This document shows positions 20,390 through 64,000 of a stretch of DNA of 64,000 nucleotides, piece after piece. Origin of the DNA: a virus (lineage: Duplodnaviria; Caudoviricetes); IMG/VR virus record IMGVR_UViG_3300033073_001045, positions 40,004 to 104,003 of that record. The stretch is one strand, 5' to 3'. The notes below the pieces were generated by a model. The model saw only the letters and a program-made list of their open reading frames with translations. It was not told the DNA's origin and searched no databases. Numbering within the stretch: position 1 is the stretch's first letter; each line of letters starts with the position of its first letter. The position numbers and the translations under genes were made by a program.

Positions 20390-22201
20390 TTATATATTTG
20401 TCCCAATAGGGTCCCTAGTTATAAGAAAAAACGGCAAATTGTCTGTTCCTGTGTTTTTTTCTACTAAAGTAATCCCTGTATCTTCTACTGATATCATGCC
20501 CAGCCCTATATATTTGGAATAATGATTATTCACCATATCTGATGTAAGCTGATGGTCGTATATTGCCAGGTTATTGTACATTGTTCCAGTACCCCATGAC
20601 AAGCCGTCTTGACTTTCATTAATACGCATATCTGTACTTGCAGACTCATTCAAAATAATAACTACGTGGTGCTGGATCCCTTCGGCAAAAAACTCATTTA
20701 TATTTGTAGCGTCGGACACGTTTACATTATTAACATAAATGGCGTCTATTCCAGTTTTAAGTATTAGCCCAGACGAGTCCCAAGACAATGACTCATTATT
20801 AGTCGAAAGTAGCACACATGGTCCAGAACCTGGTGTAAAAAACATTTCTACAGACATTATATTCATTTCAGAATTTATGCTAAATCCATGACCATCATAC
20901 ATCCTTAATCCATTATTACTGTTGTAGGATAGCACACGAGAATTACTTTTTGGTAGACAATATTCATAATCGGAGTATATTTTATCGTTAGAGTTATCTC
21001 CATAAAATGACTTATCAATAAAAAATAAAAATTCAATTGATCTTAGCACTGGCAAATATTTTGATGTGTCTTCTGAATTCATTCTTACTTTAATATACAT
21101 TACATCTTCAAACTGTTGATCATTTTTATTAAAAAATGGTATGGATTTTCCATTTGTACATGTAGTCCAATTTATATTATCTAAACTTACCTGAACAGAT
21201 ATTCCATCTGTATCACCATCCCAGTATACTTGTGAGGATGAAAGCCCAAGATAGTTTGGAATAACAACGTAGTCTGTAAAAATAAATTCTTTTGTTTGTT
21301 GATCTGTTGTTTTTTCAAAGTACAAGTACTGTTGATCTGTTGATAATTTAACGCTATCATTAGAAACATCAGACCATTTTTTTGAAATAGGATATGAATA
21401 AGAAAATGTATGTCTCATTCTATCTATATTCATACTAAATAAATGTCCTCCATCTGGATACACTATTTGTGATGCGTCAACCGATTTTGTGCCAGCAATG
21501 TAGTGTTTTGCTATTTGTGCTTGCGTCAGTTCTAATTTATAAAAAGCTATGCCATCTATCATAAATCTAATATCAGATTGACCAGACTTGAACGATATAC
21601 TGTTATTAGTAAATTTATAACTATTTAAAGAAAGTGAATTTTGAAGATTAGAGTTTATATATAATGAAATTTTATTTGTTGTAAATACACCAACTACATG
21701 AATTGCTTCTCTGAGAGAAAATGTGCTATGAATTTCATGCGATCCTACTGAAAATATAATATTACCATTTTCATAAAATATTCCTATATTATTTGATGGG
21801 TCACCAAGAAGTGTTATTCTTGATTCAGAATGTTCTGTTATTAAAAACCATCCTTCAATACTAAATGTATTGTCTGAATAATCCTTTGAACATATGCTAT
21901 TTACTGGATAATATATTAAAGTATCTGGTAAAACTTCTGTACCACGTTCCCCGCCATGATGTATAGGCATTATCTTTTTTAACGATGCATCAGTAGAAAA
22001 TCCATCGTTAAAATTACCAGAAAAATCATATACTGGAAGCCCACTAATTGCAGAATATGACACTCCGTTGTCTTTAAGATCTTGGTATGTTGCATATTTT
22101 ACTGTTAGTCCACTGTATGTTCCAACATCTCCAGAAGAAACTTCATCTAATTCATAAAAAGCAATAGGTTTATCTTTAAGGACAGTATATTTGTATGACA
22201 T
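20390..22201 (-). CDS. LamG/ConA-like domain virion protein
   Basis: FSIEGWF, HVVGVF, ISLYIN and LTQAQIAKHY LamG pattern; a second degenerate copy at the C-terminus. Confidence 0.75.
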   Translation of the reverse strand: MSYKYTVLKDKPIAFYELDEVSSGDVGTYSGLTVKYATYQDLKDNGVSYSAISGLPVYDFSGNFNDGFSTDASLKKIMPIHHGGERGTEVLPDTLIYYPVNSICSKDYSDNTFSIEGWFLITEHSESRITLLGDPSNNIGIFYENGNIIFSVGSHEIHSTFSLREAIHVVGVFTTNKISLYINSNLQNSLSLNSYKFTNNSISFKSGQSDIRFMIDGIAFYKLELTQAQIAKHYIAGTKSVDASQIVYPDGGHLFSMNIDRMRHTFSYSYPISKKWSDVSNDSVKLSTDQQYLYFEKTTDQQTKEFIFTDYVVIPNYLGLSSSQVYWDGDTDGISVQVSLDNINWTTCTNGKSIPFFNKNDQQFEDVMYIKVRMNSEDTSKYLPVLRSIEFLFFIDKSFYGDNSNDKIYSDYEYCLPKSNSRVLSYNSNNGLRMYDGHGFSINSEMNIMSVEMFFTPGSGPCVLLSTNNESLSWDSSGLILKTGIDAIYVNNVNVSDATNINEFFAEGIQHHVVIILNESASTDMRINESQDGLSWGTGTMYNNLAIYDHQLTSDMVNNHYSKYIGLGMISVEDTGITLVEKNTGTDNLPFFLITRDPIGTNI

Positions 22202-45551: not shown

Positions 45552-45704
45552 TTGACATCGAAAATAGAAATAGTATACTTTTTGTAGGGGGGTCGGGGGG
45601 TCAGTAAATCAATAAATTAATAATATATTATATATAAGTATTACTTTATATACTGTTTATTCTAGTCAACTGACTTGACAGTAACTTAATTTCAATGCTA
45701 TTAT
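45552..45704 (+). promoter_or_regulatory. Two sigma70/SigA-type promoters upstream of the transglycosylase
   Basis: TTGACA-N16-TATACT (45552-45579) and TTGACA-N18-TATTAT (45675-45704). Confidence 0.65.
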
Positions 45705-47577: not shown

Positions 47578-47769
47578 ATGAACGAACAAACAAGTAATTT
47601 AGAAGAGAACCTACCAATGGTTAATTACATAATGCTTCATAGAATTTATGACGTGTTAACTATTATGGCAAATGCGGTAGATCCAGATAAAACATCTAAG
47701 ATGATTGATCTTCATGAGCAAGGATTCCTTCTTGGCCCAGCACCTTCATTTACACCAAGCGAGGAATAA
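47578..47769 (+). CDS. Hypothetical protein
   Basis: GGGAG RBS; stop overlaps the P450 start. Confidence 0.6.
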   Translation: MNEQTSNLEENLPMVNYIMLHRIYDVLTIMANAVDPDKTSKMIDLHEQGFLLGPAPSFTPSEE

Positions 47770-49157
47770 TGGTAGCACCATTTTTTTATAAAAAAAGAAA
47801 GCATCCCTTTGTTCCAAGACCAATAACAAAGAAATATTTTTATAAAAGCGGACTAGATTTAAAGGTTTCAAATTTTATAGACCCAAAAGAAATGCTTTTT
47901 AAGTCTTGGAAAAATAAGGCAGATATGTTTTTAGAAATATCTAAAAAGCATGGACCATTTTCTTCGTTTTTTATTGCAAATGAATTAACTTTTACAATTT
48001 TTGATCCTGCTGATGTATATGAAGTTCTTATTGGTAAACAAAATCAATTTATAAAAGGTAATGCCTGGAATAGAATTAGAAAATTTGCTGGCGATGGTCT
48101 TGTAACAGCAGAAGAACCTAACCACATGAAAAATAGAAGGTATATACAGCCACATTTTAATCATAAAAAAATTGTAGATGACTATTCAAAGGTAATGATT
48201 AAAAAAGTTACAGAAAGACAAAATCTATATCTAGATTCAAATAAAAAAATGGATCTTCACAACGAGATGGTTTCTTTAGTATTTGATATAGTTATAGAAT
48301 CTTTATTTGGCATAACAGAAAAGGTTGATTCAATCCCTGTTAAAAAGAATATGGAAATAGCAATGGATTCTGTTGAGAGAACTATTGCTCCTGGTTTAGA
48401 TAGATACGATTTTACATCACTTCCTATATTTAAAAAGTTTAGAACTGCATCTTTAGACCTACATGATTTTGCAATAAATTTAATAGCAAAAAGAAAGTCT
48501 GATAAGTCTGAACATGATGACTTACTTTCTCTTTTAATTGACTCATATATGACAGATGATCAAATATCTGATGAAGTCATAACAATAATTTTAGCTGGAT
48601 TCGAGACAACAGCAAATACGTTATCTTGGATTTTTTCTTATTTAAATGAGAATAAAGACATATACGATGAGTTAATTGAAGAATCTATAAAGATATCAAA
48701 GTCTAATAATTTTATTGAAGATATAAATTCATCTGAATTGCTTGATGGAATAATAAAGGAAACTCTTAGGCTAAAGCCATCTCTTTGGATTCTACCAAGA
48801 ATGGCAGCAAATGATATATCAGTAGGAGATAAATTTATTCCAAAGGGTGCAAATGTAATTTTATCACCATACGTAACACATAGAAATGAAAGTGTATATA
48901 TAGATCCCGAAAAATTTATACCTTCTAGATGGAACAATTCTTTTGAAAAGACATTGCCTAGGGGAGCCTATGTACCATTTAGCGCTGGTCCAAGAAAATG
49001 TATAGGCGATCAATTTGCCTTGCTTGAAATGAAAATAATATTATGTTTATTTTCTGCAAAGTTTAAGATAAAAGTTCATGGAAAATTCCCAGAGGCGGCA
49101 GCAAGAGGAACTCTTAGACTTGCACATAGGGTTAAAATGAGTATTGAAAATGTATAG
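47769..49157 (+). CDS. Cytochrome P450
   Basis: AGFETT I-helix, ETLR (ExxR), PSRW, and FSAGPRKCIG heme-Cys motif. Confidence 0.96.
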   Translation: MVAPFFYKKRKHPFVPRPITKKYFYKSGLDLKVSNFIDPKEMLFKSWKNKADMFLEISKKHGPFSSFFIANELTFTIFDPADVYEVLIGKQNQFIKGNAWNRIRKFAGDGLVTAEEPNHMKNRRYIQPHFNHKKIVDDYSKVMIKKVTERQNLYLDSNKKMDLHNEMVSLVFDIVIESLFGITEKVDSIPVKKNMEIAMDSVERTIAPGLDRYDFTSLPIFKKFRTASLDLHDFAINLIAKRKSDKSEHDDLLSLLIDSYMTDDQISDEVITIILAGFETTANTLSWIFSYLNENKDIYDELIEESIKISKSNNFIEDINSSELLDGIIKETLRLKPSLWILPRMAANDISVGDKFIPKGANVILSPYVTHRNESVYIDPEKFIPSRWNNSFEKTLPRGAYVPFSAGPRKCIGDQFALLEMKIILCLFSAKFKIKVHGKFPEAAARGTLRLAHRVKMSIENV

Positions 49158-51722: not shown

Positions 51723-51872
51723 TGTGTGCCTAACTTTTTAAGATATAAGACCCATTTGTAAATGGTCTTTACAGACAGCAACCATTGCATAGTCTATAGC
51801 GTCAGTATATAGCGCTTCTTTATCGCAATAATAACATTTTTCTTTTTCCATAGTTAAATAATTATACCATTG

Positions 51873-51947
51873 TAGGGATATTGGGATTTGAACCCAAAGT
51901 CGATTGTATATAAGACAATTGCTTTAACCAGATTAAGCTATATCCCC
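51873..51947 (-). tRNA. tRNA-Ile (anticodon UAU)
   Basis: GGGGATA/TATCCCT acceptor, GCTT/AAGC D-stem, ATTGT-CT TAT AT-ACAAT anticodon arm, TTGGG-TTCAAAT-CCCAA T-arm; discriminator A, no encoded CCA. Confidence 0.9.
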
Positions 51948-52398
51948 TTGGGATTAGCGTATTCGATCTGTTATTTTTTTAATGCATTCTACGCAAAAAT
52001 TTTCTAAGGTCCCCCTCGAATTTAATCTTTCTACGTATTTAGGATTATCACAAAAATTGCATTTCATAGTGTGATCAATACAAGGACATACCACGCAACT
52101 AAAATAATACCTAGAGTTGTTAAAAACTGCCGTCCTTTATCCATACAGTAAGTATACTATATATTCTAGTCAACTACAATATCAGATTTTACAAAAATGT
52201 TAATATTTTTTTTTCTTGTATGATACATACATTTAGCAATGTCCGATTTGTCCGATAGTCCGCACATATTAGGGCTATTTGTGATGTATCTCACAAAGTA
52301 TTTTTTCAATATGTCCCTAATGTCCGTTTTGCGAGTTGATATTTGTCAGACCCCTCTGATAGTCTTAAGACATAAGGTTAAAGAAAGGAGATAAGCAA

Positions 52399-52557
52399 AT
52401 GCTTACTCAAACTACACTAGACAAGATAGTCTATGAATATCAACACGGTGGTGTTAAGTCTAACCACCCTGAATTAACTACCCGTGAGCGTAAGGCTCTT
52501 CTGAAGTATCTCTTCAGCCTACCTGCTCATTGTGATACATGTCACACACACGCATAA
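52399..52557 (+). CDS. Small early protein (52 aa)
   Basis: AAGGAG RBS; MLTQTTLDKIVYEYQHGG...HCDTCHTHA; below the ORF-track cutoff. Confidence 0.6.
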   Translation: MLTQTTLDKIVYEYQHGGVKSNHPELTTRERKALLKYLFSLPAHCDTCHTHA

Positions 52558-52632
52558 GCGTGTCGTGTTGATAATGTCCCCTCTATACGCTACAATTTCA
52601 GACATAAAGAACTAACGAAAGAAGAACAATAA

Positions 52633-52785
52633 ATGACAATCACTTACTCAATATGGGATGGCTCTCAACTACTAGGTGTAGATTTCAAGGCTTCCTCCCC
52701 TGATGAAATGAACACTTTTGTAAAAGAACTACAAAAGGTTTCTAAAAATGTTGTAGCACATATGCGAAAGGTAGAACAGAACTAA
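52633..52785 (+). CDS. Small early protein (50 aa)
   Basis: Follows a promoter and the AACGAAAG leader; MTITYSIWDGSQLLG... Confidence 0.6.
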   Translation: MTITYSIWDGSQLLGVDFKASSPDEMNTFVKELQKVSKNVVAHMRKVEQN

Positions 52786-53424
52786 TGATGACTAAATGGG
52801 ATACAATTCAATCAGACCTAGACCCAGTAACACCTAAGTATTGGGGAGATGAACACGAATTTGATAAGTCAATAGATGATGATGACGATATTGAATTCTC
52901 ACTAGATAATTGGGAGGAGATGTAATGACTACTAATCGCCTACTAACTACCGCCGTTCAATTAGGCATAGGTATCCCTGCGCTATATATGGCGAGGATCG
53001 TATTCCGTGATTTCGTAGCGGAGATGCGTGAAATGTGGCACGAATCACAATAAAATAACGGCGTGTCGGCTTGACAAAATCAAGCTGGCCCGCAAAGGCA
53101 CGGGGTCGGGCGTGTCGTTATGAAAGAGTTATAAAAACCCTGAAAATTTACGGCGTGTCGATTTGACAGACAATTCGGACATTTTTATGTGATGAGTATC
53201 ACACGACTTGAGCGTCTCAAAGTTTGGAATTACTGGCTAGTAATGTGAAAAATGTCAGTGGCTTAGGCTATAATTGCAGACATAACAACGAAAGAAAGAA
53301 GGTCTTAAATGAACCTAGAAGAATTCAAGGCTCACGTTATCGCACAACGTGAAGCAAGCAAGGCGGAAGCGTTGTCAGTGCTATCTGCTACAATTACCAA
53401 AACAACAAAGAAAGGCGACAACTA

Positions 53425-53625
53425 ATGTCAGCAAATGTCTATAATGTAGAAAGTCTCCTAGTGGGAAAAATGTATTACTCTAATTCAGTAAAAGGCGAGA
53501 TTATCTCAGCCGAAAAAAATAGTGATGTATGGTATGCGGATTGCGATACCTACAAGGTGCAGGTTCGCCCTACCAATTCTATCAAAGATACTTACCGCTA
53601 TGTAGCAGTAAAGGTTGGTGAGTAA
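53425..53625 (+). CDS. Hypothetical early protein
   Basis: Own promoter (53373) and GAAAGG RBS. Confidence 0.65.
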   Translation: MSANVYNVESLLVGKMYYSNSVKGEIISAEKNSDVWYADCDTYKVQVRPTNSIKDTYRYVAVKVGE

Positions 53626-53918
53626 ATGGGATTTATTGAATTCGCTAGAATAAATGAAGATGGAGTTTCTTGGGTAGATTTATCCGAAGCGACACCTGAT
53701 GAATTATTCAACATTGAATTAGGCTTACTAAATGAGGGAGCCCTATTCAATACACCTGAAGCCAAATAAGAAAGGAAAACTAAAATGGTAAAAGATGTAA
53801 AAGAAATAATTGCCGTTTCTTGTGATGAGTGTGGCGGTGCAGGTTTCCTATTTTGGGGAGATGAAAATAACTATGATGTAGAAGCGTGTGATTGCGCTCT
53901 TGATGATTGGAACATTTA

Positions 53919-54128
53919 ATGTATAAAATAACTTTATCTTATGACGGCAACGCTCCGCATTGGCAAAAAGACTATGACAACGAATTTGAGGCTTGGAAAG
54001 ATTTCTTTGCTTTCGTTGATTGGGGTTTCGCTAACGAATACTCAACTGTAAATCTTTATAATTCAGAATTGAAATGCTTTACCCGTCATTTCTATCGTGA
54101 GGGAAGAAAGGTCGTAACTGTAAAATGA
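53919..54128 (+). CDS. Hypothetical early protein
   Basis: In a run of overlapping small ORFs; likely start MYKI. Confidence 0.55.
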   Translation: MYKITLSYDGNAPHWQKDYDNEFEAWKDFFAFVDWGFANEYSTVNLYNSELKCFTRHFYREGRKVVTVK

Positions 54129-54313
54129 TGACACGCAAAGATTATATTTCTACTGCAGAAATTCTAAAGTATGTGAGCAACAAAACTCACCCAGCCGTAT
54201 TTTCTAAAATGGTAAATGATTTTGCAGAGATGTTTGCAAAAGATAATCCTCGTTTTGATGTAACAAAGTTTCACGAAGCAAGCGGATATAAAGTAAAAAC
54301 TTTTACAAATTAA
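54125..54313 (+). CDS. Hypothetical early protein
   Basis: MMTRKDY...FAKDNPRFD pattern, common in small phage proteins. Confidence 0.65.
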   Translation: MMTRKDYISTAEILKYVSNKTHPAVFSKMVNDFAEMFAKDNPRFDVTKFHEASGYKVKTFTN

Positions 54314-54639
54314 AAAGAAAAGGAACAGAAAATGACAAAAGAAAAAGTAAAACGTGTTCAAGAATTGCGCCGATCAAATGCAGCAACACCAATTCCATCT
54401 AAGAAAAAATATAAACGTAAAGTAAAACACAAAAAAGAAAAATATTTAAAAACTTATTGCGAATTGGTAGCTCCATTTTTTGAATAGTTGAATTTTCAAC
54501 TATTCGCCCGCAAAAGCGTGGGGGCTATATGTGATTTAAGACACAATGTGATTTTCCCCACAAAATTTACGGCGTGTCGTTTTGTAAATGTCAGTCTATT
54601 CTGTTATAATTCTATCACCAACCAACGAAAGGCCAATTC

Positions 54640-55359
54640 ATGAAACTAAAAAGGTCTAATGATAGAAAGGTGGCTAACCTTGTCACTAAAAATGGAAAGC
54701 AGGCAGCAATTGCTAACACGTTCGGATTGCCCGCAGGAAAAAACTATTCATGTCCTGGCGCAACGTCTATCTGTGAGACTGTTTGCTACGCTGGCAAATT
54801 GGAAAAGTTATTCCCAGGAGTAAAAACTAATCTTCTGCATAACTGGGATCTTCTTAAAGACGCAGATAGCAAAACGATGATTTCTCTTCTTGATGAAATG
54901 ATTAAAGAATTCAAGGCTGATTGTCTTAAGAAAGACGCCCCTATGTTATTCCGTATTCACTGGGACGGAGATTTTTTTAGCGACGCTTATGCATATGCAT
55001 GGAAAAACGTTATCTCTAGTCATGAAGATGTTCAATTCTGGGTATATACACGTGTAAAGTCTGCAGCGCTTATTCTTAAGGATGTATCTAATCTTTCACT
55101 GTACTATTCAACGGATGATGAGAATAAAGAAATTGCATTCGATTTAAAAACTAATTCTAAGGTCCGCCTTGCTTACCTAGGCAAGACATTCGCCTCAACC
55201 GAAGACACAATGAAAGAATTAACTGGAAAGCCTGGCGCTAAGTGCCCTGAAAATAATAAAAGCATTCCATTAATTTCTGGCAATGGGTCCGCCTGTGTTT
55301 CATGTGGCTTGTGTGTCTACGGTAAAGCAGACATTCGATTTTCTGCGAGTAAAAAATGA
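54640..55359 (+). CDS. GP88-like (radical-SAM-related Fe-S) protein
   Basis: CPGATSICETVCYA, RIHWDGDF, FWVYTR and C-terminal CP...CxxCxxC. Confidence 0.75.
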   Translation: MKLKRSNDRKVANLVTKNGKQAAIANTFGLPAGKNYSCPGATSICETVCYAGKLEKLFPGVKTNLLHNWDLLKDADSKTMISLLDEMIKEFKADCLKKDAPMLFRIHWDGDFFSDAYAYAWKNVISSHEDVQFWVYTRVKSAALILKDVSNLSLYYSTDDENKEIAFDLKTNSKVRLAYLGKTFASTEDTMKELTGKPGAKCPENNKSIPLISGNGSACVSCGLCVYGKADIRFSASKK

Positions 55360-55702
55360 GCTCAACCGATTTTTTAGGAGCTGTGATTGGAATCATTCTT
55401 ATTTTATTTTTATGCTCTCCGATTGTACTAGCTATATATATGTGGACCAATGCAAAAATAGATATCGATAAAGACGGCAAGGATGATCTTCCTAATCGTT
55501 GGGATGGGTAACGGCGTGTCGTGTTGACAATTGTCAGCACGGCCCGTATATGTAGGGGGTTTTCCACAGGCTTACGGATAATTGTGGATAACCCTGGATT
55601 TTTGTGATGATTATCACAAAAGCTGCGACACGCCGATAATGGATTAGGAAATGTCGGTGGCTTAGGCTATAATACTATTATTCAACCAACGAAAGGTAAA
55701 AA

Positions 55703-56161
55703 ATGCTAAAAGAAAAAATCACAGTAGGCGAAGCCATAACACTTATTCATGATTCACTTATGACCTTTGAAGATGGTCTGCCAAGTGCAGATATTTCTGC
55801 AATTATTTATGCAATTAACAATGATATTCAGATTCGTGATTACTTGCTAGGACTTCCTGATACTTTCCCTATGGATACTTGCAAGGCATTCTTATCTTAT
55901 ATCTCTGATTCAGTAGATGGTGCAGAACGCTACTCAGTAGATACTATTGCTTCTGCATATTTCTTTGAAACTGGCGATATTGAAATGGCAGTAATGCTAC
56001 TTGCTACCGCTCTTGATACCAAGTCTGATTATTCTTTGGCTCTATTGCTAAAGCGTGTAGTTGAGGCAGGTTGGCCATCCGATTCTTTCCGCCGTATGCG
56101 TGAAGAATTGCACCCACAGGTAATTGCAAACCTAGAGGAAAAGCAAGACGAACTAATCTAG
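55703..56161 (+). CDS. DUF4192-like protein
   Basis: DIQIRDYLLG and ALxxxxDYSLALLLxRxxxAGWP motifs. Confidence 0.55.
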   Translation: MLKEKITVGEAITLIHDSLMTFEDGLPSADISAIIYAINNDIQIRDYLLGLPDTFPMDTCKAFLSYISDSVDGAERYSVDTIASAYFFETGDIEMAVMLLATALDTKSDYSLALLLKRVVEAGWPSDSFRRMREELHPQVIANLEEKQDELI

Positions 56162-56236
56162 TTAATATGGTGGCACCGATAAATGTCGGTGCCACCTGCT
56201 ATACTTCCACTATAACTACAAACAAAAGGAAAACAA

Positions 56237-56503
56237 ATGGGACTAAACACAGCTATTGACCTAGAGGCAAGTCTATCACTTGAGGCAGGACTTGCTTATC
56301 ACTTACAGGCTAATCACTATCCACCCGTTCCCGTTGCCATGGTGCAACCTTGCATAGATGCTATTGACGCATATTGGGAGGAAGATTATCAGCGACAAAT
56401 TGATCTGCCAAAAGATATTACCTGGCGTGGACAAACTACTGCACCTGCATCGGCTATCGTAGAGGCTCACCACCTAGACGCCTGGCTTATGGAAAGTGAT
56501 TAA
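56237..56503 (+). CDS. Hypothetical early protein
   Basis: Own promoter (56184) and AAGGA RBS; HLQANHYPPVP. Confidence 0.7.
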   Translation: MGLNTAIDLEASLSLEAGLAYHLQANHYPPVPVAMVQPCIDAIDAYWEEDYQRQIDLPKDITWRGQTTAPASAIVEAHHLDAWLMESD

Positions 56504-56909
56504 TCTCACAATTAAATAATCTTAAATAGTAAAACAGGGCTAGACAAATGTCAGACCCCTATGTTAGAATACCTACCTACACAGAAAAGAGGCAAAAATG
56601 ACAATCAACGAAAAGTTGTATCAGGTTGGCGATTTATTCACCACCCTAAAGTCAAAGAAGACAGGTGTGATTAAAGAAATCCACCCACAGGCATCTGGCT
56701 CGGTGCGTGTGTTGCTAGAAATGCCAAACAAGGAAACTCGCTGGACAACAGTTTCAGCAAGCACTTTGGCAGTATAACTAAATAAACGAAACAGGGGCAG
56801 TTTCGGAAGTGTTCTAGCCCAATGTCGTAAGTAAGAACTTCCACCCTACGGGGTTGTCAGACCCCTATGTTATACTAACCACTAAACCAACCAACGAAAG
56901 AGGAAACAA

Positions 56910-57335
56910 ATGGCTAGAAACGGAAAATCTATTAGCGTGAAAATCGCTACACCAAAGGTAATCAAGGCACTAGAAACACGCCTTGCTGAATTGGAAAAGT
57001 CATACGCCACACAAGGCGAGAACGAGGCAAAGTATCAGAAAGCCCGTGATAAGTGGCAAAAGGAAATCGGTAAGTGGGCTGTTGCTAACTTTGCTAAGGC
57101 AGAGAACATCAGAACAAACTATCGCAACTGGAACAAAACTCTAAATGTAGATTTTGACCTTATTGTAAATGAAACTGATTTCCCTAAAGAGCCTGAAAAG
57201 GACTTTGAGATTATCCACTCTCACACTTACAATGAAATGAAAGAGGAAATCACGAACGCAATTCGTATCCTCAAAATGACAGACGAGGAAGTTGTAAATA
57301 CTTCTACTTACAACGCAATCGCCCGTTATCTATAA
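56910..57335 (+). CDS. Hypothetical early protein
   Basis: Own promoter (56855) and CCAACGAAAGAGG leader. Confidence 0.75.
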   Translation: MARNGKSISVKIATPKVIKALETRLAELEKSYATQGENEAKYQKARDKWQKEIGKWAVANFAKAENIRTNYRNWNKTLNVDFDLIVNETDFPKEPEKDFEIIHSHTYNEMKEEITNAIRILKMTDEEVVNTSTYNAIARYL

Positions 57336-57350
57336 TTCCTAAATAGGAAA

Positions 57351-57380
57351 TGTCCTGAGCATGACAACTAAAACTGCTCA
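57351..57380 (+). ncRNA. Compact H-type pseudoknot, copy 1
   Basis: TGTC/GACA stem; loop GAGCA pairs with downstream TGCTC after AAAAC. Confidence 0.55.
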
Positions 57381-57408
57381 CCACACAACTACTAACAAAG
57401 GAAATAAA

Positions 57409-57669
57409 ATGCGTAATCGTTTTAGAGTAGAAATCTATGACGCAGATAAAAATAACGACATCACGATTTATTCAGATCAAGGTGTTGATAAAGAATATCT
57501 AACTGAATTAGTATTCAGTAATATCAGAAACTTTAGTGGAAAAATTAACGCTTATGTTTTTGATAATGTAAAGAAAAAGAAAACAACTGCAATGTTTCTT
57601 GATGAAAACACTGTGCAGTTTAATAAAAATATAATTAATAATGCGACAAGGATAGAGCTTGGGATTTAA
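57409..57669 (+). CDS. Hypothetical early protein
   Basis: Start MRNRF at 57409 with AAGGA RBS. Confidence 0.65.
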   Translation: MRNRFRVEIYDADKNNDITIYSDQGVDKEYLTELVFSNIRNFSGKINAYVFDNVKKKKTTAMFLDENTVQFNKNIINNATRIELGI

Positions 57670-57846
57670 TCCTGGGCTCTGCCCGCAATATTGAGGGGTT
57701 ATCCACAGCGTTACGGCCACCTGTGGATAACTCCTGAAAATTTGTGAGATTGATCACACGAGACAATTCGGACAAATGACTAACTAATCTTGTAAATGTC
57801 AGACCCCTTTGCTATAATTGCACAATCAACCAATCGAAAGGAAATC

Positions 57847-58851
57847 ATGGCTCACAATCTCGAAACCGAAAACGGCGAAGTTGCATTTGCTCTTCGTGGT
57901 GCTCCTGCATGGCACAATCTCGCAAATCGTATTTTCTCACAAGATGAGGAAGTAACTACACAAACAATGCTTGATGAAGCAAAACTATCCAATTGGAATG
58001 TTCGTTTATCTCCACTAACTGACCACATTTCAGAATCTTGGAATGATGTATCTCAGGCTCAATTGGTTATTCGTGATAACCCATTTAATGGCGGAACTGA
58101 TGTTCTCGCTACTGTTGGTAAGCGTTACAAGCCTGTGCAAAATGAAGAATTGTTTGCATTTGCTGACGCTATTCATGACGCTAATGCTGATTGCCGTTGG
58201 GAATCTGCTGGCTCTCTTAAAAAAGGTAAAGTTGTATTTGGAACTGTAGATATTCCACGCACAATGGTATTAGACCCACAAGGTGCTAATGACCAAACAA
58301 AACTTTATCTTATCGTATGGACATCTCACGACGGTTCTGTTGCTGTTCAAGCAGCGGTTACACCTGTTCGTGTAGTTTGCCAAAATACTTTGAATCTTGC
58401 AATGCGTAATGCAAAGCAATCTTTCAAAATTCGTCATACTCAATCTGTTGAGGGTCGTATTCAAGTTGCTCGTGAGACTCTTGGTCTTGCGCTAGGTTAC
58501 TTTGATGAATTTGAGAAGCAGGCTCAAGCCCTTTATTCTCAATCAATTACTGACGCAGAATTCTCAAAGTTGATTCAGACAATTTATCCAAAGCCTGAAA
58601 AAGACGCTAAGGGTGCAATTAAAAAGTGGGAAAATAAAGTTGTCTTAATTGATGACCTTTATCATAACTCACCTACTAACGCTAATATCAAGGGAACAAA
58701 ATGGGGTGCGTTTAATGCACTTACTGAACGCCTTGATTACTTCCGCTCTGGTCGTGGTAATTCAGAATCACTTATGGCGGGTGCAAGTGGTTTTGACCCA
58801 GTTCTAACCGCAGAAAAAAATAAGTTGTATCGAATGGTTGCAACTTTCTAA
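57847..58851 (+). CDS. DUF932 family (phage/plasmid-like) protein
   Basis: PAWH, YKPVQN, SAGSL, TSHDGS, TPVRVVCQNTL, RHT and GTKWGAFNA motifs; start MAHNL after GAAAGG RBS. Confidence 0.88.
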   Translation: MAHNLETENGEVAFALRGAPAWHNLANRIFSQDEEVTTQTMLDEAKLSNWNVRLSPLTDHISESWNDVSQAQLVIRDNPFNGGTDVLATVGKRYKPVQNEELFAFADAIHDANADCRWESAGSLKKGKVVFGTVDIPRTMVLDPQGANDQTKLYLIVWTSHDGSVAVQAAVTPVRVVCQNTLNLAMRNAKQSFKIRHTQSVEGRIQVARETLGLALGYFDEFEKQAQALYSQSITDAEFSKLIQTIYPKPEKDAKGAIKKWENKVVLIDDLYHNSPTNANIKGTKWGAFNALTERLDYFRSGRGNSESLMAGASGFDPVLTAEKNKLYRMVATF

Positions 58852-58857
58852 ATAAAA

Positions 58858-58886
58858 AAATCCTGAGCAAGATTTAAAACTGCTCA
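58858..58886 (+). ncRNA. Compact H-type pseudoknot, copy 2
   Basis: AAATC/GATTT stem (covaries with copy 1); same CTGAGCA loop and AAAAC-TGCTC tail. Confidence 0.55.
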
Positions 58887-58892
58887 CCATTT

Positions 58893-58965
58893 GGTTCGTT
58901 AGCTTAGCGGTTAAAGCGCTACCCTGTCACGGTAGAGATCACGAGTTCAAATCTCGTACGAATCG
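58893..58965 (+). tRNA. tRNA-Asp (anticodon GUC)
   Basis: GGTTCGT/ACGAATC acceptor, GCTT/AAGC D-stem, CTACC-CT GTC AC-GGTAG anticodon arm, ACGAG-TTCAAAT-CTCGT T-arm; discriminator G. Confidence 0.92.
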
Positions 58966-59082
58966 CTCTCATATAATGAGACGCCCGCAATATTGAGGGT
59001 GTGATGTTTATCATACGGAGGATCGAAAAAAACCCTGGAATTCTGTAGACAAATGTCAGTGGGGTCCTGTATAATTCTCGGC

Positions 59083-59691
59083 ATGTCAGAATTTAAATCA
59101 TATTGGTATGTATGTCAATCTTGTGATGCATCAATTGAAGTTGTGTCTAAGGGAATCCATTTCCAAGACCCAACATGTAATTGTAATAATTCAGAGGTTG
59201 TGTGGTGTCAGACCAGTGTGGTAGAATCAGACCCTACAAACGAAAGGCAACAAATGGAAACAACAACAAATTATGATGCTAATGTACTTGTAACTTACAA
59301 AGATATTACTGACGGTGTTACAACATATCCAACACTTAAGGTTAATGAACTTGAGTGGAAGTTGGAGCGAATCAAAAGACTAGAACAGCAGTTATCTTTT
59401 TCTAATGGTCAGATTAGCCGCATCATTGAAAACTTATCTGAAGATGGTTGGTTTAATCCAAACTATGAAAAGGAAGAAGTTCTCAACGACCTTTGTGAAA
59501 TTCTTGACTACGAACCAAAGAAAGAAATTTGTTTTGAGGGCGTAATTCATTTCTCAGGTCGTGTCGATGTTAAACTTTCAGAACTTGAAGACTTTGACCT
59601 TGATGACATGTTGTCAGAACTATCAGTTGATGTATACAACGGCGATGTTGTTATCGATGATTATTCAGTCGAAGATGTGCGTGAGTGCTAA
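59083..59691 (+). CDS. Hypothetical protein with N-terminal Zn-ribbon; second in-frame start at 59254
   Basis: Leaderless ATG 7 nt after TATAAT; CQSC...CNC; internal promoter 59206 and AACGAAAGG RBS before METTT. Confidence 0.65.
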   Translation: MSEFKSYWYVCQSCDASIEVVSKGIHFQDPTCNCNNSEVVWCQTSVVESDPTNERQQMETTTNYDANVLVTYKDITDGVTTYPTLKVNELEWKLERIKRLEQQLSFSNGQISRIIENLSEDGWFNPNYEKEEVLNDLCEILDYEPKKEICFEGVIHFSGRVDVKLSELEDFDLDDMLSELSVDVYNGDVVIDDYSVEDVREC

Positions 59692-59906
59692 TGTATTTTG
59701 AGTTAACTGCAAAAGATGAACGTTCCCTCCGTCTCTCATTTTGGGAGGCGGAGGTAATGGGACTCGATCCTGAATATACTAGCCGTGCATTGACTTTCAG
59801 CATAGGAACTGGTAGTATTGAGAAAGTGAGTAACATCAGAGATAAGTTTAATTTAACAGAAACTTACTGGTCTGATGCAGAACCAACAGGATACACAGGG
59901 AGATAA
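59691..59906 (+). CDS. Hypothetical protein
   Basis: Start overlaps the upstream stop. Confidence 0.55.
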   Translation: MYFELTAKDERSLRLSFWEAEVMGLDPEYTSRALTFSIGTGSIEKVSNIRDKFNLTETYWSDAEPTGYTGR

Positions 59907-60050
59907 AATGTCAGACTATAAAGATGGTTTTGAAGATGGTTATAAGTTTGCTCGTGAAGAGCTAATGGAAAAGCTTTCAGAGATTGATATCACTGATATC
60001 GACTCTTGGATTCTTGACCGTCTTGCAGAAATGATTGAGGGTGGCTCTCT

Positions 60051-60248
60051 ATGAGAGATAGAGAATACATTCCTTGCGATGCCTGCGGATCATCTGACTC
60101 TATGTATTTAGTTAAACTAGTAGATGGCGAGCTATCTTTTTGCGGCCACCATTACAATAAAAACAAAGAGGCGCTAGACAAAGTTGCCTATGAAGTGATA
60201 GAATTAAACAAGACAGAAGAAGTACCTCAACTAGAAACGGCGGAATAA
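60051..60248 (+). CDS. Small Zn-binding protein
   Basis: CDAC...FCGHH. Confidence 0.65.
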   Translation: MRDREYIPCDACGSSDSMYLVKLVDGELSFCGHHYNKNKEALDKVAYEVIELNKTEEVPQLETAE

Positions 60249-60249
60249 A

Positions 60250-60618
60250 ATGGGTGACAGAGCAAACTTTGGATTTAAAGATTCCAAGGGCGATACAGTA
60301 TTTCTATACGGGCACTGGGCTGGCCATAGAATGCTAGAGAACTTGGCGGATGCTGTAGAGCATGCACGTCCACGGTGGAATGATGAATCATATGCAACAC
60401 GTATTACTATTAGCAGGCTAGTAAATGAAGAATGGACTAGTGAGACTGGATGGGGTATTACCGTAAATGAATTGGCGGACAATGAGCACAAGGTACCTAT
60501 TATTGACTGGACCAACAAAACATTTACATTAATGGAAGAGGACCTTAAGACAGAAGTATTTAGTTTAACTCTAGATAAATTTGTCGATAAGTATTCTAGT
60601 CAACTAAGTATGGTATAA
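60250..60618 (+). CDS. Hypothetical protein
   Basis: MGDRA...LYGHWAG...RWNDESYATRI. Confidence 0.7.
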   Translation: MGDRANFGFKDSKGDTVFLYGHWAGHRMLENLADAVEHARPRWNDESYATRITISRLVNEEWTSETGWGITVNELADNEHKVPIIDWTNKTFTLMEEDLKTEVFSLTLDKFVDKYSSQLSMV

Positions 60619-60625
60619 TTAGACC

Positions 60626-60782
60626 AGGACCCTTGGTCCTGGTTTTAATAGGAAATGAATGGTGCATCTATTAGTCTACGGGCCAGGTGCTAAGTAAAGC
60701 GGATTTATTTCTTTCGTTGGAAATCCAGGCAGCCAATTCATACCCCCTAGTCAGCTTCAACTCTGATCCTAGGGGGTTTCTA
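60626..60782 (+). ncRNA. Candidate trans-acting antisense sRNA
   Basis: TGGTATAAT at 60611-60619; outer stem 60656-65/60729-40; GGATTT/AAATCC hairpin with loop ATTTCTTTCGTTGG; terminator ACCCCCTAG...CTAGGGGGT-TTC. Confidence 0.6.
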
Positions 60783-60959
60783 TTTGCCCGCAAAAAGCTG
60801 AGGGTAACATATCTCTTTTACGGATGTCAAGTAAATACCCTGAAAATTCCACATAGTAAGATCAATTTTGATCAAATGTGGTGGGAATCACAGGAGCATA
60901 GTATTCCATTTGTCAGTGGTCTGATATATAATTCTCTTATATCAACGAAAGGATATAAA

Positions 60960-61733
60960 ATGCCAAATTGGGTATATAACACATTAACAATTCAAGGACC
61001 TAAGTCTGAAATTGATATGATTAAAGATAGACTTAATAAGCCTTTTACATTAGCACAAGAGACATTTGGTATGGGTGATATTAGTTCATCAGGATTCCCC
61101 ACCAAAATTAAATTAGTTGAATACAATAATCCTGTATTTGCTTTCCATAACATCCATTCATATAAGGATTATGGCATTACTGATGAGGAATATGCATGCC
61201 AGCCAAATCGTGATGGTGTAGACATGACACAGCCTGATTGGTTTGCTAAGTCTGTTGAGTTTGCTAAAACTCAAAAAGATTGGTATTCATGGAACAATAC
61301 TAACTGGGGAACTAAATGGGATGTTGCTGTTCGTGATGATGATGAGTATCCAAACACAGAACTAATTGAATATAAGTCTGAGGGTGATGACAACTGGCTT
61401 GTATATAAATATGAAACTGCATGGTCTCCTGCCGTAACTATTCTAACTAAACTAAGTAATCTTGTTCCAAATTCCGTCCTTACTCTTGAATATGAAGAGG
61501 AGACAGGCTGGGGTGGAGAATATGAGATTATCCGTGGTGAGGTTAAAGAATTAGCCGAATGGGAAAATCGTTGCTATGCTTGCCAATCTTTTGATACATT
61601 GTCTTATTGTGAAGATGATTGCGGTGAGTTCTGCTCTAATTGCAATCAGGGTTCATGGCAGGATGAAGAGGCTATGAAAGAATGTCAGACCCATAAGGTA
61701 TTATTGGAATCTACAGAAAAGGTGGAAGCATAA
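60960..61733 (+). CDS. YubB/Api92-like ferredoxin-fold protein
   Basis: MPNWV start after promoter 60911; WNNTNWGTKWD and YETAWSP motifs. Confidence 0.75.
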   Translation: MPNWVYNTLTIQGPKSEIDMIKDRLNKPFTLAQETFGMGDISSSGFPTKIKLVEYNNPVFAFHNIHSYKDYGITDEEYACQPNRDGVDMTQPDWFAKSVEFAKTQKDWYSWNNTNWGTKWDVAVRDDDEYPNTELIEYKSEGDDNWLVYKYETAWSPAVTILTKLSNLVPNSVLTLEYEEETGWGGEYEIIRGEVKELAEWENRCYACQSFDTLSYCEDDCGEFCSNCNQGSWQDEEAMKECQTHKVLLESTEKVEA

Positions 61734-61887
61734 TGGATACAGCATATAAGCCGTATACAATTGATGAACTAATCACAACTATCTATGAAGATAATTATTC
61801 ACATATTGAATTTATGGAAAATATGAATGGCGGAGATTGCGATTGTAATATACATTCAGCAATGAATCTAATAGAAAGTTATATGTA

Positions 61888-62106
61888 ATGGAAGAAATGA
61901 TCGCTTATCTTGAATTACATTTACTTAGTTTAGAACAAGATTCTGAAAAGCTTGAAAAACTAATGGATGCTTATTCTAACTATGAAGATGATGAGTATAG
62001 AGAATTAGAGATTGAAGATATTAGTACCAATGGACAGTATATTGCTACCGCCCACATTTTGTCAGTGGCTCGTGATATACTTGCCAAAACAACAAAGGAG
62101 CACTAA
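61888..62106 (+). CDS. Hypothetical acidic protein
   Basis: In a chain of overlapping ORFs. Confidence 0.55.
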   Translation: MEEMIAYLELHLLSLEQDSEKLEKLMDAYSNYEDDEYRELEIEDISTNGQYIATAHILSVARDILAKTTKEH

Positions 62107-62405
62107 TGCACTACGATATTGAAAACTCAGAGGACCTTGCACCACATCTACAGCGTATGGTAGACCATGGAGTAAATGGTCTTGACATCATGCATGGGGA
62201 ACTTAAGAATCTCATGCTAATGGCTGATTCACAACTTGAGGAGGCACAGCGTATTGAGGAAGAGAACGACTACTCAGACGCTATGGAATCTATGGAGCGG
62301 AAGTACTGGGAGGGCATGTCAGACGCTTATACACATTTGTACAAACTAACATATGACTTATCATTTGCAATTGCTGGACTACGAAAGGATGACAACGGTG
62401 AGTGA
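62106..62405 (+). CDS. Hypothetical acidic protein
   Basis: Promoter 62060 and AAGGAG RBS. Confidence 0.7.
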   Translation: MHYDIENSEDLAPHLQRMVDHGVNGLDIMHGELKNLMLMADSQLEEAQRIEEENDYSDAMESMERKYWEGMSDAYTHLYKLTYDLSFAIAGLRKDDNGE

Positions 62406-62757
62406 ATTAGATCTGCAGGAACAAACACGTAGAGACGATGTCTATAATGATTTAAACAATATTGTAGACCAATTGACAGCCTTGCCTGTCTTCCCGTCAC
62501 TGATGTGGGTATGGTCCTTTGACATCATTCGCAATATATTTGAAGAACATCAATTTGGAACAGAATGGGATGACTATTCAATTAAAGATAATGTAACACT
62601 TAAAGATATCTTTGATAAGTTTTGGGAAGATGTCGACAGTCTTGGAATTAACATGGATTTTGGTGGAGAGGTTGTTGAAGAAACAATCAGAGATTGGATG
62701 ATTGACAGGGAATTCCTGGCCATGGTTGAGGAGGAGGACGAAGATGAAGATGAGTGA
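62398..62757 (+). CDS. Hypothetical acidic protein
   Basis: GTG start at 62398 after ACGAAAGGA. Confidence 0.6.
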   Translation: MSELDLQEQTRRDDVYNDLNNIVDQLTALPVFPSLMWVWSFDIIRNIFEEHQFGTEWDDYSIKDNVTLKDIFDKFWEDVDSLGINMDFGGEVVEETIRDWMIDREFLAMVEEEDEDEDE

Positions 62758-63218
62758 TTCGTACATCAATGATCAATTAAGTAAAGCCCAACAACTCTTG
62801 TGGGGTGGCTCCGAAACTGAAAATATCGAAGCACATAACATCATTGCTAAATTAATTAAAGATCGTATCGAACAGGTCGAATCGATCTAAGGGCAAAAAA
62901 AATTGTTTACGGCAACTATTTACAAATTCCTGAAAAGTTGCTATAATAAATAAAACAACTATCTCTTGAAAGGAGATTATCAAATGACAACAAAGCGTGA
63001 ATATCTAAAGCAGCAAGGCATTACAGTTGGCGTACGTGGCCGTTTCTCTGGCGCAGCCAAGGTAGCTCTAGCTGAGGCGGAAGCTAAGGGCATTAAGTTT
63101 ACAGCTGAGGTTCCTGCGAACAAGGCCAAGTAAAACCAGGGACGGGGTTTAGGAATCGTTGGTCCTTGACCTCGTCTCTTATTTTTGATATAATCAACGG
63201 TTAGGCGAGAGGCGGAAT

Positions 63219-63590
63219 ATGAGTAAGTCACCTGAAATCAAAGTAGCAGAATCATTAGTTAATCTAATGGATGACCATTGGTTTAATCCGACTATATTTG
63301 GTCGTTATTTGGCGGAACAACCGCTATATACGATTGATAGGGTCATGGAAATGATTGTGTCGGTTATATCAGAACAATCAAAGATGTATGAGATACATAA
63401 AAATCGTGGGGAATCATCAGAAGGCTTAATGCTTGCCAATGAACTCAATGAATGTGTCAAAGCATACCAAGAAGATAACAAAGTAAATAATCTTAAACTA
63501 CCGTCCCGTTCCTATACAGTCAAAAAGCGGGAGGAAGTTAAAGACTACACATTTGGATGGCGGAGTGAAGAACTAGATCCATTCAATTAG
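63219..63590 (+). CDS. Hypothetical protein
   Basis: TGATATAAT upstream and GAGGCGG RBS. Confidence 0.65.
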   Translation: MSKSPEIKVAESLVNLMDDHWFNPTIFGRYLAEQPLYTIDRVMEMIVSVISEQSKMYEIHKNRGESSEGLMLANELNECVKAYQEDNKVNNLKLPSRSYTVKKREEVKDYTFGWRSEELDPFN

Positions 63591-64000
63591 GCATATACAA
63601 TGAGAGACGAATGCCTGGATATATAGATAAACATATATAGCCCAAATGATCCACAGGATGATTCCACATTCTGTGGATTTTTTGTATGCTGTGGGCTATG
63701 GGCCAAATTTTCTATTTACGACATGTGATCAAAATCCCTGAAATTTTCCAGAACATGGGCCAAATTTTGCATTTACGAAGCCTTGACAAAAACCCCTGAA
63801 AATGCTAGAAAATGTGTACAAAATATGTCTAAATAGATAATGAATCATTATAAATGTCGACAAATTTGTACAGAATCTGGCAAAATTTGATCAAAATTTC
63901 TGCATAAAACTATTGACAAATATGGATCAATATGCTGCTATATGGGGATGTATGTCTATATAAATAAACATTACGATGATTTAAGTGCTAAGCCTTGCTC

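Follow-up and report, generated by a model that had tools for sequence, protein, structure and literature searches.

The 64,000-nucleotide stretch of DNA analyzed here, referred to as the window, comprises positions 40004-104003 of the 104,003-bp IMG/VR record IMGVR_UViG_3300033073_001045 (the whole record is named G000). It includes an arm of about 30 small genes in which the motif TGTC(A/G)G-N10-TAnnnT, the architecture of the actinobacterial promoters activated by PafBC, is found ahead of gene after gene. As judged from the nucleotide sequence, this abundant and uncultured lake phage probably borrows the DNA-damage sensor of its host by means of about 14 promoters located in the small-gene block.

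Promoters of the small-gene arm

A search for TGTCRG-N10-TAnnnT in the window found 15 matches, all of them on the + strand between positions 52344 and 62081, against 1.06 on average, and never more than 4, in dinucleotide-preserving shuffles. The remaining 40 kb of the record includes one further match. Thirteen sites have the element TGTCAG and two TGTCGG. A previous sequence-only reading had listed 15 TGTC copies, 14 of them TGTC(A/G)G; the number 15 is correct, but all 15 are TGTC(A/G)G, and TGTCCC at 52575 is a 16th instance that appears when TGTC-N12-TAnnnT is searched on the + strand of the arm. The distance of exactly 16 nt between TGTC and TAnnnT given in that reading holds when counted from start to start. 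A literal 16-nt gap gives 9 matches where 11.6 are expected, that is, no enrichment, and was discarded. The three sites quoted as examples were exact. At 13 sites the last T of the -10 element lies 25-35 nt upstream of a called start codon with a GAAAGG-type ribosome-binding site in between, and the site at 59054 lies 33 nt upstream of a 38-amino acid (aa) open reading frame (ORF) at 59108, which brings the sites associated with a start codon to 14 out of 15, in agreement with the earlier description. Three sites (53373, 61683 and 62060) are within the 3' end of the preceding gene, as had also been noticed. The remaining one, at 53426, is probably a coding coincidence rather than a promoter since it overlaps the first codons of gene 53425 and has no G/C pair at -21/-20. 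The predicted features of the arm are as follows; distances are to the start of the gene named.

52344..63679, +, arm of about 30 small genes (Gp88 family, DUF932, DUF4192-like, Api92-like, Lsr2-like and many orphans), contains all PafBC-type promoters
52344..52365, +, PafBC-type promoter, the arm's first; -10 TAGTCT; ATG 52399 at 34 nt
52575..52596, +, variant TGTCCC-N10-TACAAT with a -35-like TTGATA at 17 nt; ORF 52633 at 37 nt
53253..53274, +, PafBC-type promoter (TGTCAGTGG..TATAAT); ATG 53309 at 35 nt
53373..53394, +, PafBC-type promoter within the 3' end of gene 53309-53425; ATG 53425 at 31 nt
53426..53447, +, pattern match over codons 1-8 of gene 53425, G/C missing at -21/-20; unlikely to be a promoter
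54589..54610, +, PafBC-type promoter with TGn extended -10; Gp88-family gene 54640 at 30 nt
55652..55673, +, PafBC-type promoter, TGTCGG variant; ATG 55703 at 30 nt
56184..56205, +, PafBC-type promoter, TGTCGG variant, its -26 element forming one arm of an 11-bp hairpin with upstream sequence; ATG 56237 at 32 nt
56549..56570, +, PafBC-type promoter (TGTCAGACCCC class); ATG 56598 at 28 nt
56855..56876, +, PafBC-type promoter, TGTCAG being the loop of a GGGGT/ACCCC hairpin; ATG 56910 at 34 nt
57797..57818, +, PafBC-type promoter, alignable in 80/80 relatives; DUF932 gene 57847 at 29 nt
59054..59075, +, PafBC-type promoter with a -35-like TAGACA at 18 nt; 38-aa ORF 59108 at 33 nt
59206..59227, +, PafBC-type promoter; ATG 59254 at 27 nt
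60911..60932, +, PafBC-type promoter; ATG 60960 (Api92-like ferredoxin-like domain protein) at 28 nt
61683..61704, +, PafBC-type promoter within the 3' end of gene 60960-61733; ATG 61733 at 29 nt
62060..62081, +, PafBC-type promoter within the 3' end of gene 61888-62106; ATG 62106 at 25 nt
62919..62947, +, canonical promoter TTTACA-17-TATAAT with TGn at the arm's end, upstream of 49-aa ORF 62984
63166..63194, +, canonical promoter TTGACC-17-TATAAT with TGn, upstream of 123-aa ORF 63219
63648-63679, strong hairpin-T terminator closing the arm

The hairpin across the promoter at 56184 occupies window positions 56173-56200 (GGTGGCACCGA...TCGGTGCCACC), and that at 56850-56865 has the structure GGGGT-TGTCAG-ACCCC with TGTCAG at 56855 in the loop. 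Both may be terminators of the upstream genes that overlap the next promoter. The leaders of the arm genes (window 52614-62390) have in common an A/C-rich stretch that ends in (C)CAACGAAAGG at the ribosome-binding site, and G is nearly absent from +1 to +10.

The motif was then compared among 80 IMG/VR relatives taken from 317 matches to the DUF932 gene (91-95% amino acid identity). In their 1.32 Mb, TGTCRG-N10-TAnnnT was found 1152 times on the gene strand and 7 times on the opposite strand, and a reversed-pattern control gave 17 matches. The spacer is fixed: N10 produced 1167 matches while each of the other lengths between 6 and 15 produced only 2-116. The logo of 850 unique instances can be written as aaa-TGTCAG-(T/A)-S-S-c ... 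(C/A)-T-G-c-TAtAAT; A is strongly favored over G at -24 (about 90%), and about 76% of the copies have TGn upstream of the -10. No -35 element is present, positions -36 to -30 carrying at most 0.39 bit of information except for an A-richness at -31 to -29, and a few copies have a partial -35 with 4-5 of 6 matches (TTGTAA, TAGACA) at 17-18 nt. In alignments of 300 orthologous promoters positions -28 to -25 were conserved in 100% of the cases, -23 in 99.7%, positions -12, -11, -9 and -7 in at least 97.7% and -14 in 93%, while conservation of the spacer and flanks was just 27-86%. Diverged relatives, with 10-30% of the DNA alignable and 53-65% aa identity, have 3-9 same-strand copies per contig, and in complete relatives the copies are restricted to a single arm of about 11 kb. 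The strand bias, the fixed spacer, the selective conservation and the persistence in diverged relatives make the interpretation of these sites as promoters of PafBC-type architecture, maintained under selection, well supported. Contigs of the relatives are also present in four RNA-labelled runs, which consist of assembled contigs only and provide neither 5' ends nor proof of transcription.

Cultured actinophages did not share the motif beyond chance level: four Stanwilliamsviridae, eleven mycobacteriophages of different clusters and phiC31 (n=16) had 0-1 matches each. Judging from these 16 genomes, the regulon appears to be special, among the phages tested, to the freshwater group. Two other identities of the element were ruled out. 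It is not a WhiA box (GACAC / GTGTC), as -29 is A or T and not G, and its bottom strand, CTGACA, does not act as a divergent -35, as no conserved -10 is found at the proper upstream distance.

The PafBC type is one of three promoter classes of this phage, since canonical -35/-10 promoters and extended -10 promoters are used elsewhere. The minus-strand replication module has canonical promoters with the sequence cTATTGACA-N17/18-TAtAAT, four of which end exactly 7 nt before an ATG, and the structural genes have an extended -10 only (TGnTAtAAT). The copies of the canonical class are:

G000 707, 4190, 17579 and 28979, -, cTATTGACA-N17/18-TAtAAT, replication-module copies outside the window
window 45675-45704 and 63166-63194, same class

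Most PafBC-type promoters are preceded by a second conserved sequence, the palindrome TGTGA-N6-TCACA, which we take to be a CRP/GlxR-type site. Eleven of its 12 copies in the genome are within the arm:

52280..52295, perfect, centre 56.5 nt before the TGTC of promoter 52344
starts 52531, 53188, 55603 and 57743, further perfect copies
starts 53034, 54530, 54547, 56495, 59000 and 60877, copies with one mismatch

In the 80 relatives 441 of 459 perfect palindromes are located at most 120 nt upstream of a TGTCRG promoter, and the distance from their centre to TGTC peaks at 36.5, 46.5 and 56.5 nt, i.e. in steps of a helical turn, with a secondary peak at 41.5. This phasing suggests that a dimeric regulator, the second one acting on these promoters, may bind the palindrome on one face of the helix, an arrangement that corresponds to the class I promoters activated by CRP-family proteins. 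A profile search found no HTH_Crp_2 domain encoded by the phage.

Likeness to cellular recA promoters

The consensus of PafBC promoters in vivo, as defined by chromatin immunoprecipitation sequencing and cryo-electron microscopy, is tGTCgg(N10)tA(N3)T; it comprises a -26 element but lacks a -35 (PMC8635444), and the assignment of the phage motif to this RecA-NDp/PafBC architecture by the sequence-only reading agrees with it. The cryo-electron microscopy structure showed that the helix-turn-helix of PafB reads the GTC triplet at -23 to -28 while PafC bridges to sigma region 4 (PMC8635444), and the ligand that activates PafBC is single-stranded DNA (ssDNA) (PMC11804915). The phage sites have the traits of this class, namely tGTC(g/a)g with an invariant GTC, a spacer of exactly 10 nt to a SigA-type TAnnnT, and no -35. 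An older RecA-NDp consensus, reportedly put forward by Gamulin in 2004 as tTGTCRgtg-8nt-TAnnnT, fits the flank preferences of the phage sites as well.

To compare the phage sites with cellular ones, metagenome contigs were scanned for TGTCAG-N10-TAnnnT and then for a RecA N-terminal motif located 68-128 nt downstream. The promoter sequence was found upstream of recA in at least 120 contigs; 80 of these matches were fetched and 78 encode an actinobacterial-type RecA. The other two (39% GC, Bacteroidota-like RecA) resemble chance matches and were excluded from the comparison. The G+C content of most contigs is 60-74%, that of five others is 53-54%, and three, L142, L129 (both 44%) and L132 (46.6%), are lower still. 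The gene order of L142 is dapA, RNase J (rnj), ftsK, pgsA, cinA, a helix-turn-helix gene, recA and recX, which is the usual actinobacterial arrangement. In these three chromosome fragments of actinobacteria with 44-47% GC the sequence TGTCAG-N10-TAnnnT is located about 30-35 nt upstream of recA:

L142 2601-2622, -
L129 5580-5601, -
L132 696-717, -

These matches suggest that the RecA-NDp/PafBC-type promoter reaches low-GC, probably freshwater, actinobacteria. Flanking positions that neither search had constrained were compared in two sets of unique promoters, 52 from cellular recA genes and 388 from the phages:

-22 W, cellular recA 82%, phage 92%
-21 S, cellular recA 98%, phage 93%
-20 S, cellular recA 96%, phage 93%
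-19 C, cellular recA 46%, phage 53%

Both sets have TGG, TGC and ACC among their most frequent triplets at -22 to -20, and 93% G/C at -21/-20 is far from the composition of the phage genome (37-38% GC).

The phage and candidate readers of the element

The 104-kb genome is of the siphovirus type and encodes a tape measure of 2715 aa, a portal, a protease, a DnaE-type polymerase, a primase, DnaB and seven tRNAs. Its portal is 56-58% identical to those of the Stanwilliamsviridae that infect Streptomyces, and the phage can be considered a distant relative of this family. In addition to this kinship, several traits identify it as an actinophage. It encodes a WhiB protein that scores above the Pfam cut-off and an Lsr2-like protein found by PHROG match. 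Homologues of its Gp88-family protein in cultured phages were found in Mycobacterium and Streptomyces phages only, apart from two weak matches in Synechococcus phages. Finally, the -10 of several canonical promoters ends exactly 7 nt upstream of an ATG, which points to leaderless mRNAs, and these are frequent in Actinobacteria. The stretch occurs in DNA runs from aquatic, freshwater, estuary and wastewater metagenomes. A search for tyrosine and serine integrases in five genomes, each at least 94% complete by CheckV estimate, found neither, and the phage is therefore probably virulent. Among cultured phages neither megablast with the arm nor tblastn with a 944-aa virion protein produced a match.

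Searches that could lead to the host were made as well. When the phage WhiB was used to scan genome contigs, the sole match was one contig of a 3.6-Mb metagenome-assembled genome labelled 'Bacteroidia' (G006, JBBALJ01). This assembly includes at least 6-7 contigs of this phage type (C6, C57, C106, C174, C213, C215 and L097), with WhiB at 70% identity and clusters of the motif. It was rejected as the host because the presence of several such contigs is probably the result of mis-binning by composition or coverage. Searches for WhiB homologues matched solely phage or short metagenome contigs, with no host lead, and a P450 atlas search gave no lead to the host. The P450 gene itself, at window 47769-49157 on the + strand, is full length (Pfam E 1e-71) and belongs to a + strand cluster downstream of the canonical promoters at 45552 and 45675. 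One of 34 scanned proteins had a weak ferrochelatase PHROG match (E 2.5e-4). Nanopelagicales have been reported as haem auxotrophs (PMC10202952). As for the tRNA genes, tRNA-Asp(GTC) is within the small-gene arm (window 58893-58966, +), tRNA-Ile(TAT) is in the divergent region that separates the arm from the minus-strand genes (window 51872-51947, -), and five more are clustered at G000 17743-18119.

The sequence-only reading had considered that the phage might encode a WYL activator of its own. This option is eliminated by the lack of a WYL gene in six genomes of the group, namely the present one and those of five relatives, of which two have terminal repeats. Likewise, no Sigma70_r2 domain was found in the phage genomes searched, and no MotA/AsiA or other transcription-factor family among 34 proteins scanned, which were those of the small arm genes and their neighbors. 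The sole small helix-turn-helix protein detected is a 48-aa protein resembling sigma region 4, encoded in the replication module (G000 21058-21201, -) by a gene translationally coupled between a RuvC-like gene and a gene for a 113-aa protein. Its homologues in Streptomyces Stanwilliamsviridae are annotated 'helix-turn-helix DNA binding domain protein'. It is unlikely to be the reader, since its orthologues in the Streptomyces phages Muntaha and BillNye (53-57% identity) belong to genomes that lack the motif. As a phage-encoded reader was not found, a host factor would be the most economical one, and PafBC is the one known factor with such a specificity.

The position of the arm is relevant to the question of when it is transcribed. 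In the BE-cluster Streptomyces phages the homologues of Gp88 are located at a distance of 4-5 kb from the end of the genome, and each record contains them twice, which indicates that they lie in the terminal repeat. By analogy with these related phages, and from its gene content, the arm is probably an early takeover module, and this position would fit genes that are transcribed first. A module of this kind would have to rely on proteins of the host.

Competing explanations and known systems

We consider the reading of these promoters by the PafBC of the host to be the best explanation, and somewhat better than even in its chances of being right. The sites would be housekeeping-sigma (SigA-type) promoters, each heading the short leader of one or two arm genes. 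Their core consists of the -10 (TAtAAT, mostly with TGn) and TGTC(A/G)G placed exactly 10 nt upstream, at -28 to -23, in lieu of any -35. PafB would read the GTC triplet, PafC would bridge to sigma region 4 in the manner known as 'sigma adaptation', and ssDNA would switch the activator on. Having no reader of its own, the phage would rely on the PafBC of a low-GC freshwater actinobacterial host, and the arm would fire once ssDNA arises in the infected cell by processing of the incoming ends, nuclease attack or the start of replication. A dimer of the CRP family bound to the phased palindrome could be a second input to most of these promoters. We infer three points: the identity of the reader as PafBC, the triggering by ssDNA and the early timing of the arm. 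The wider proposal, in which a virulent phage hands the start of infection to two host sensors, the PafBC ssDNA alarm, which is also in control of DNA repair and is connected with phage resistance, and a CRP-type regulator, is more tentative, and we place it slightly below even. In the sequence-only reading the host damage response was taken as the switch of the early program; the promoter behavior, the PafBC architecture and the identification of an actinophage are in favor of that idea, which applies to one of three promoter classes rather than to all.

Several observations weigh against PafBC as the reader. An extended -10, present as TGn in 76% of the copies, can work without a -35 in many bacteria, and the structural genes of the phage apparently use an extended -10 alone, so that initiation may be possible without TGTCAG. 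PafBC depends on ssDNA for its activity, and such a dependence would be strange for the genes that open an infection. For about 30 proteins of the arm no family could be recognized; a dedicated reader could be among them or among the virion proteins, and the canonical -35/-10 promoters of the phage could express such a factor first. The lack of the motif in the 16 cultured actinophages, including the 11 mycobacteriophages whose host uses PafBC, indicates that its use is no general habit of actinophages. In addition, one paper did not recover the M. smegmatis PafBC motif in S. venezuelae (PMC9380542), and the regulon is thus not uniform across the phylum.

Alternatively, a factor made by the phage or delivered with the virion may read the -26 element, comparable to the sigma appropriation by T4 MotA/AsiA: the canonical promoters would fire first, one of their products would redirect the RNA polymerase-SigA holoenzyme of the host to the TGTCAG promoters, and the likeness to PafBC promoters would be convergence or mimicry of the PafB helix-turn-helix. 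The existence of the separate cTATTGACA-N17/18-TAtAAT class, with two canonical promoters at the end of the arm, the mostly orphan nature of the arm proteins, the motif-free actinophages of PafBC-bearing hosts, and the T4 middle promoters, in which the -35 is also exchanged for a box near the -10 (PMC8635444), are all compatible with such a factor. We nevertheless consider it unlikely. No WYL, sigma or CRP-type helix-turn-helix protein was found in the genomes searched and nothing similar to MotA/AsiA among the 34 proteins of G000, the sole detectable small helix-turn-helix protein is kept in motif-free Streptomyces phages, and the location of arm-gene homologues in the terminal repeat of related phages fits genes that are transcribed first. 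Furthermore, an independent reader would not be expected to share with recA promoters both the preferences at -22/-21/-20 and the 10-nt spacing. The same likeness is an argument against a different view, slightly less probable again, in which the RNA polymerase with SigA needs only the extended -10 and TGTCAG is an operator-like site, and not an activator site, for a repressor or timing factor of phage or host origin by which the arm is turned off or modulated. The TGn in about 76% of the copies, the apparent use of an extended -10 alone by the structural genes, the partial -35 (TTGTAA, TAGACA) at 17-18 nt in some copies and the inclusion of some -26 elements in hairpins with upstream sequence speak for an operator. 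On the other hand, a repressor site would need no base-exact spacing to the -10, yet this spacing is fixed in more than 1100 copies; in contrast to typical operators, the element is a lone asymmetric box; the -35 positions carry nearly no information; and the identical element and spacing are found at cellular recA promoters, which depend on an activator. Far less probable than either of these is an induction switch by which PafBC would turn on the lytic genes of a temperate prophage after damage to the host DNA. PafBC does respond to DNA damage and the upstream palindromes could be repressor operators, but neither a tyrosine nor a serine integrase was found in the five genomes that are at least 94% complete, virulent phages have genomes of this type (DnaE, primase, DnaB, tRNAs, Stanwilliamsviridae-like), and the sole match in a genome collection consists of free contigs in a mis-binned assembly and not of an integrated copy.

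If reading by the host PafBC is correct, the arm would be a phage regulon built from a damage-sensing, activator-dependent promoter type of the host. Viral expression would be coupled to the ssDNA alarm of the cell, and perhaps to its cAMP status, and the signal by which the cell recognizes foreign or damaged DNA would switch on the takeover and counter-defence genes of the phage. The phage would then be the first natural example of viral exploitation of 'sigma adaptation', within a group that ranks among the most abundant of lake phages. To our knowledge, the early genes of phages are as a rule transcribed from strong host promoters without special features, and special promoter classes usually need factors made by the phage. 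The PafBC-type promoters would also be extended to low-GC freshwater actinobacteria and their very abundant phages, and hundreds of natural variants would become available for dissecting the requirements of the -26 element. Model actinobacteria offer the means to test the idea directly, as pafBC mutants and purified PafBC are available for them. The titles, abstracts and passages of the literature on PafBC and phage that were consulted deal with WYL defence regulators and include one report of PafBC in mycobacteriophage resistance; phage promoters of the PafBC type are not described in them, in line with the novelty that had been supposed for such a regulon.

The closest known systems are the PafBC/RecA-NDp (recA P1-type) promoters of Mycobacterium and other Actinobacteria (PMC8635444, PMC6789036, PMC11804915), which have the same TGTC(R)G at -28 to -23, 10-nt spacer and TAnnnT, lack a -35, and in the case of the cellular recA promoters show the same W-S-S preference at -22 to -20. 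The phage promoters differ from them in number and location: they are found in a virus, a single arm of the genome contains about 14 of them, and the genes that follow are small orphans and not repair genes. They also differ in structure, since the phage -10 has an AT-rich sequence and carries TGn, position -24 strongly favors A over G and a phased TGTGA-N6-TCACA is found upstream. The middle promoters of T4 also have a box near the -10 in place of the -35, and an adaptor puts sigma region 4 to a new use (PMC8635444). T4, however, encodes both adaptors, which remodel sigma, whereas searches for such genes in this phage found none and its box corresponds to that of a host activator. The host-takeover modules of the SPO1/T5 type have terminal repeats and dense early promoters with consensus host -35/-10 sequences. 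Like the arm, they pack together numerous tiny genes with a strong promoter ahead of each gene or of every second one, and they lie in terminal repeats, as do the arm homologues in the related Streptomyces phages; the difference is that the phage arm uses a promoter of the activator type. Finally, WYL-domain proteins such as BrxR and CapW regulate anti-phage systems (PMC9122601, PMC11662680), and PafBC is reported to affect mycobacteriophage resistance (Rafique 2025, as cited in PMC12848934). These ssDNA-sensing WYL regulators couple transcription to infection by a phage or to damaged DNA, as is proposed for the present phage. In those cases it is the host that defends itself by means of the sensor, while here the virus appears to put its own genes under it.

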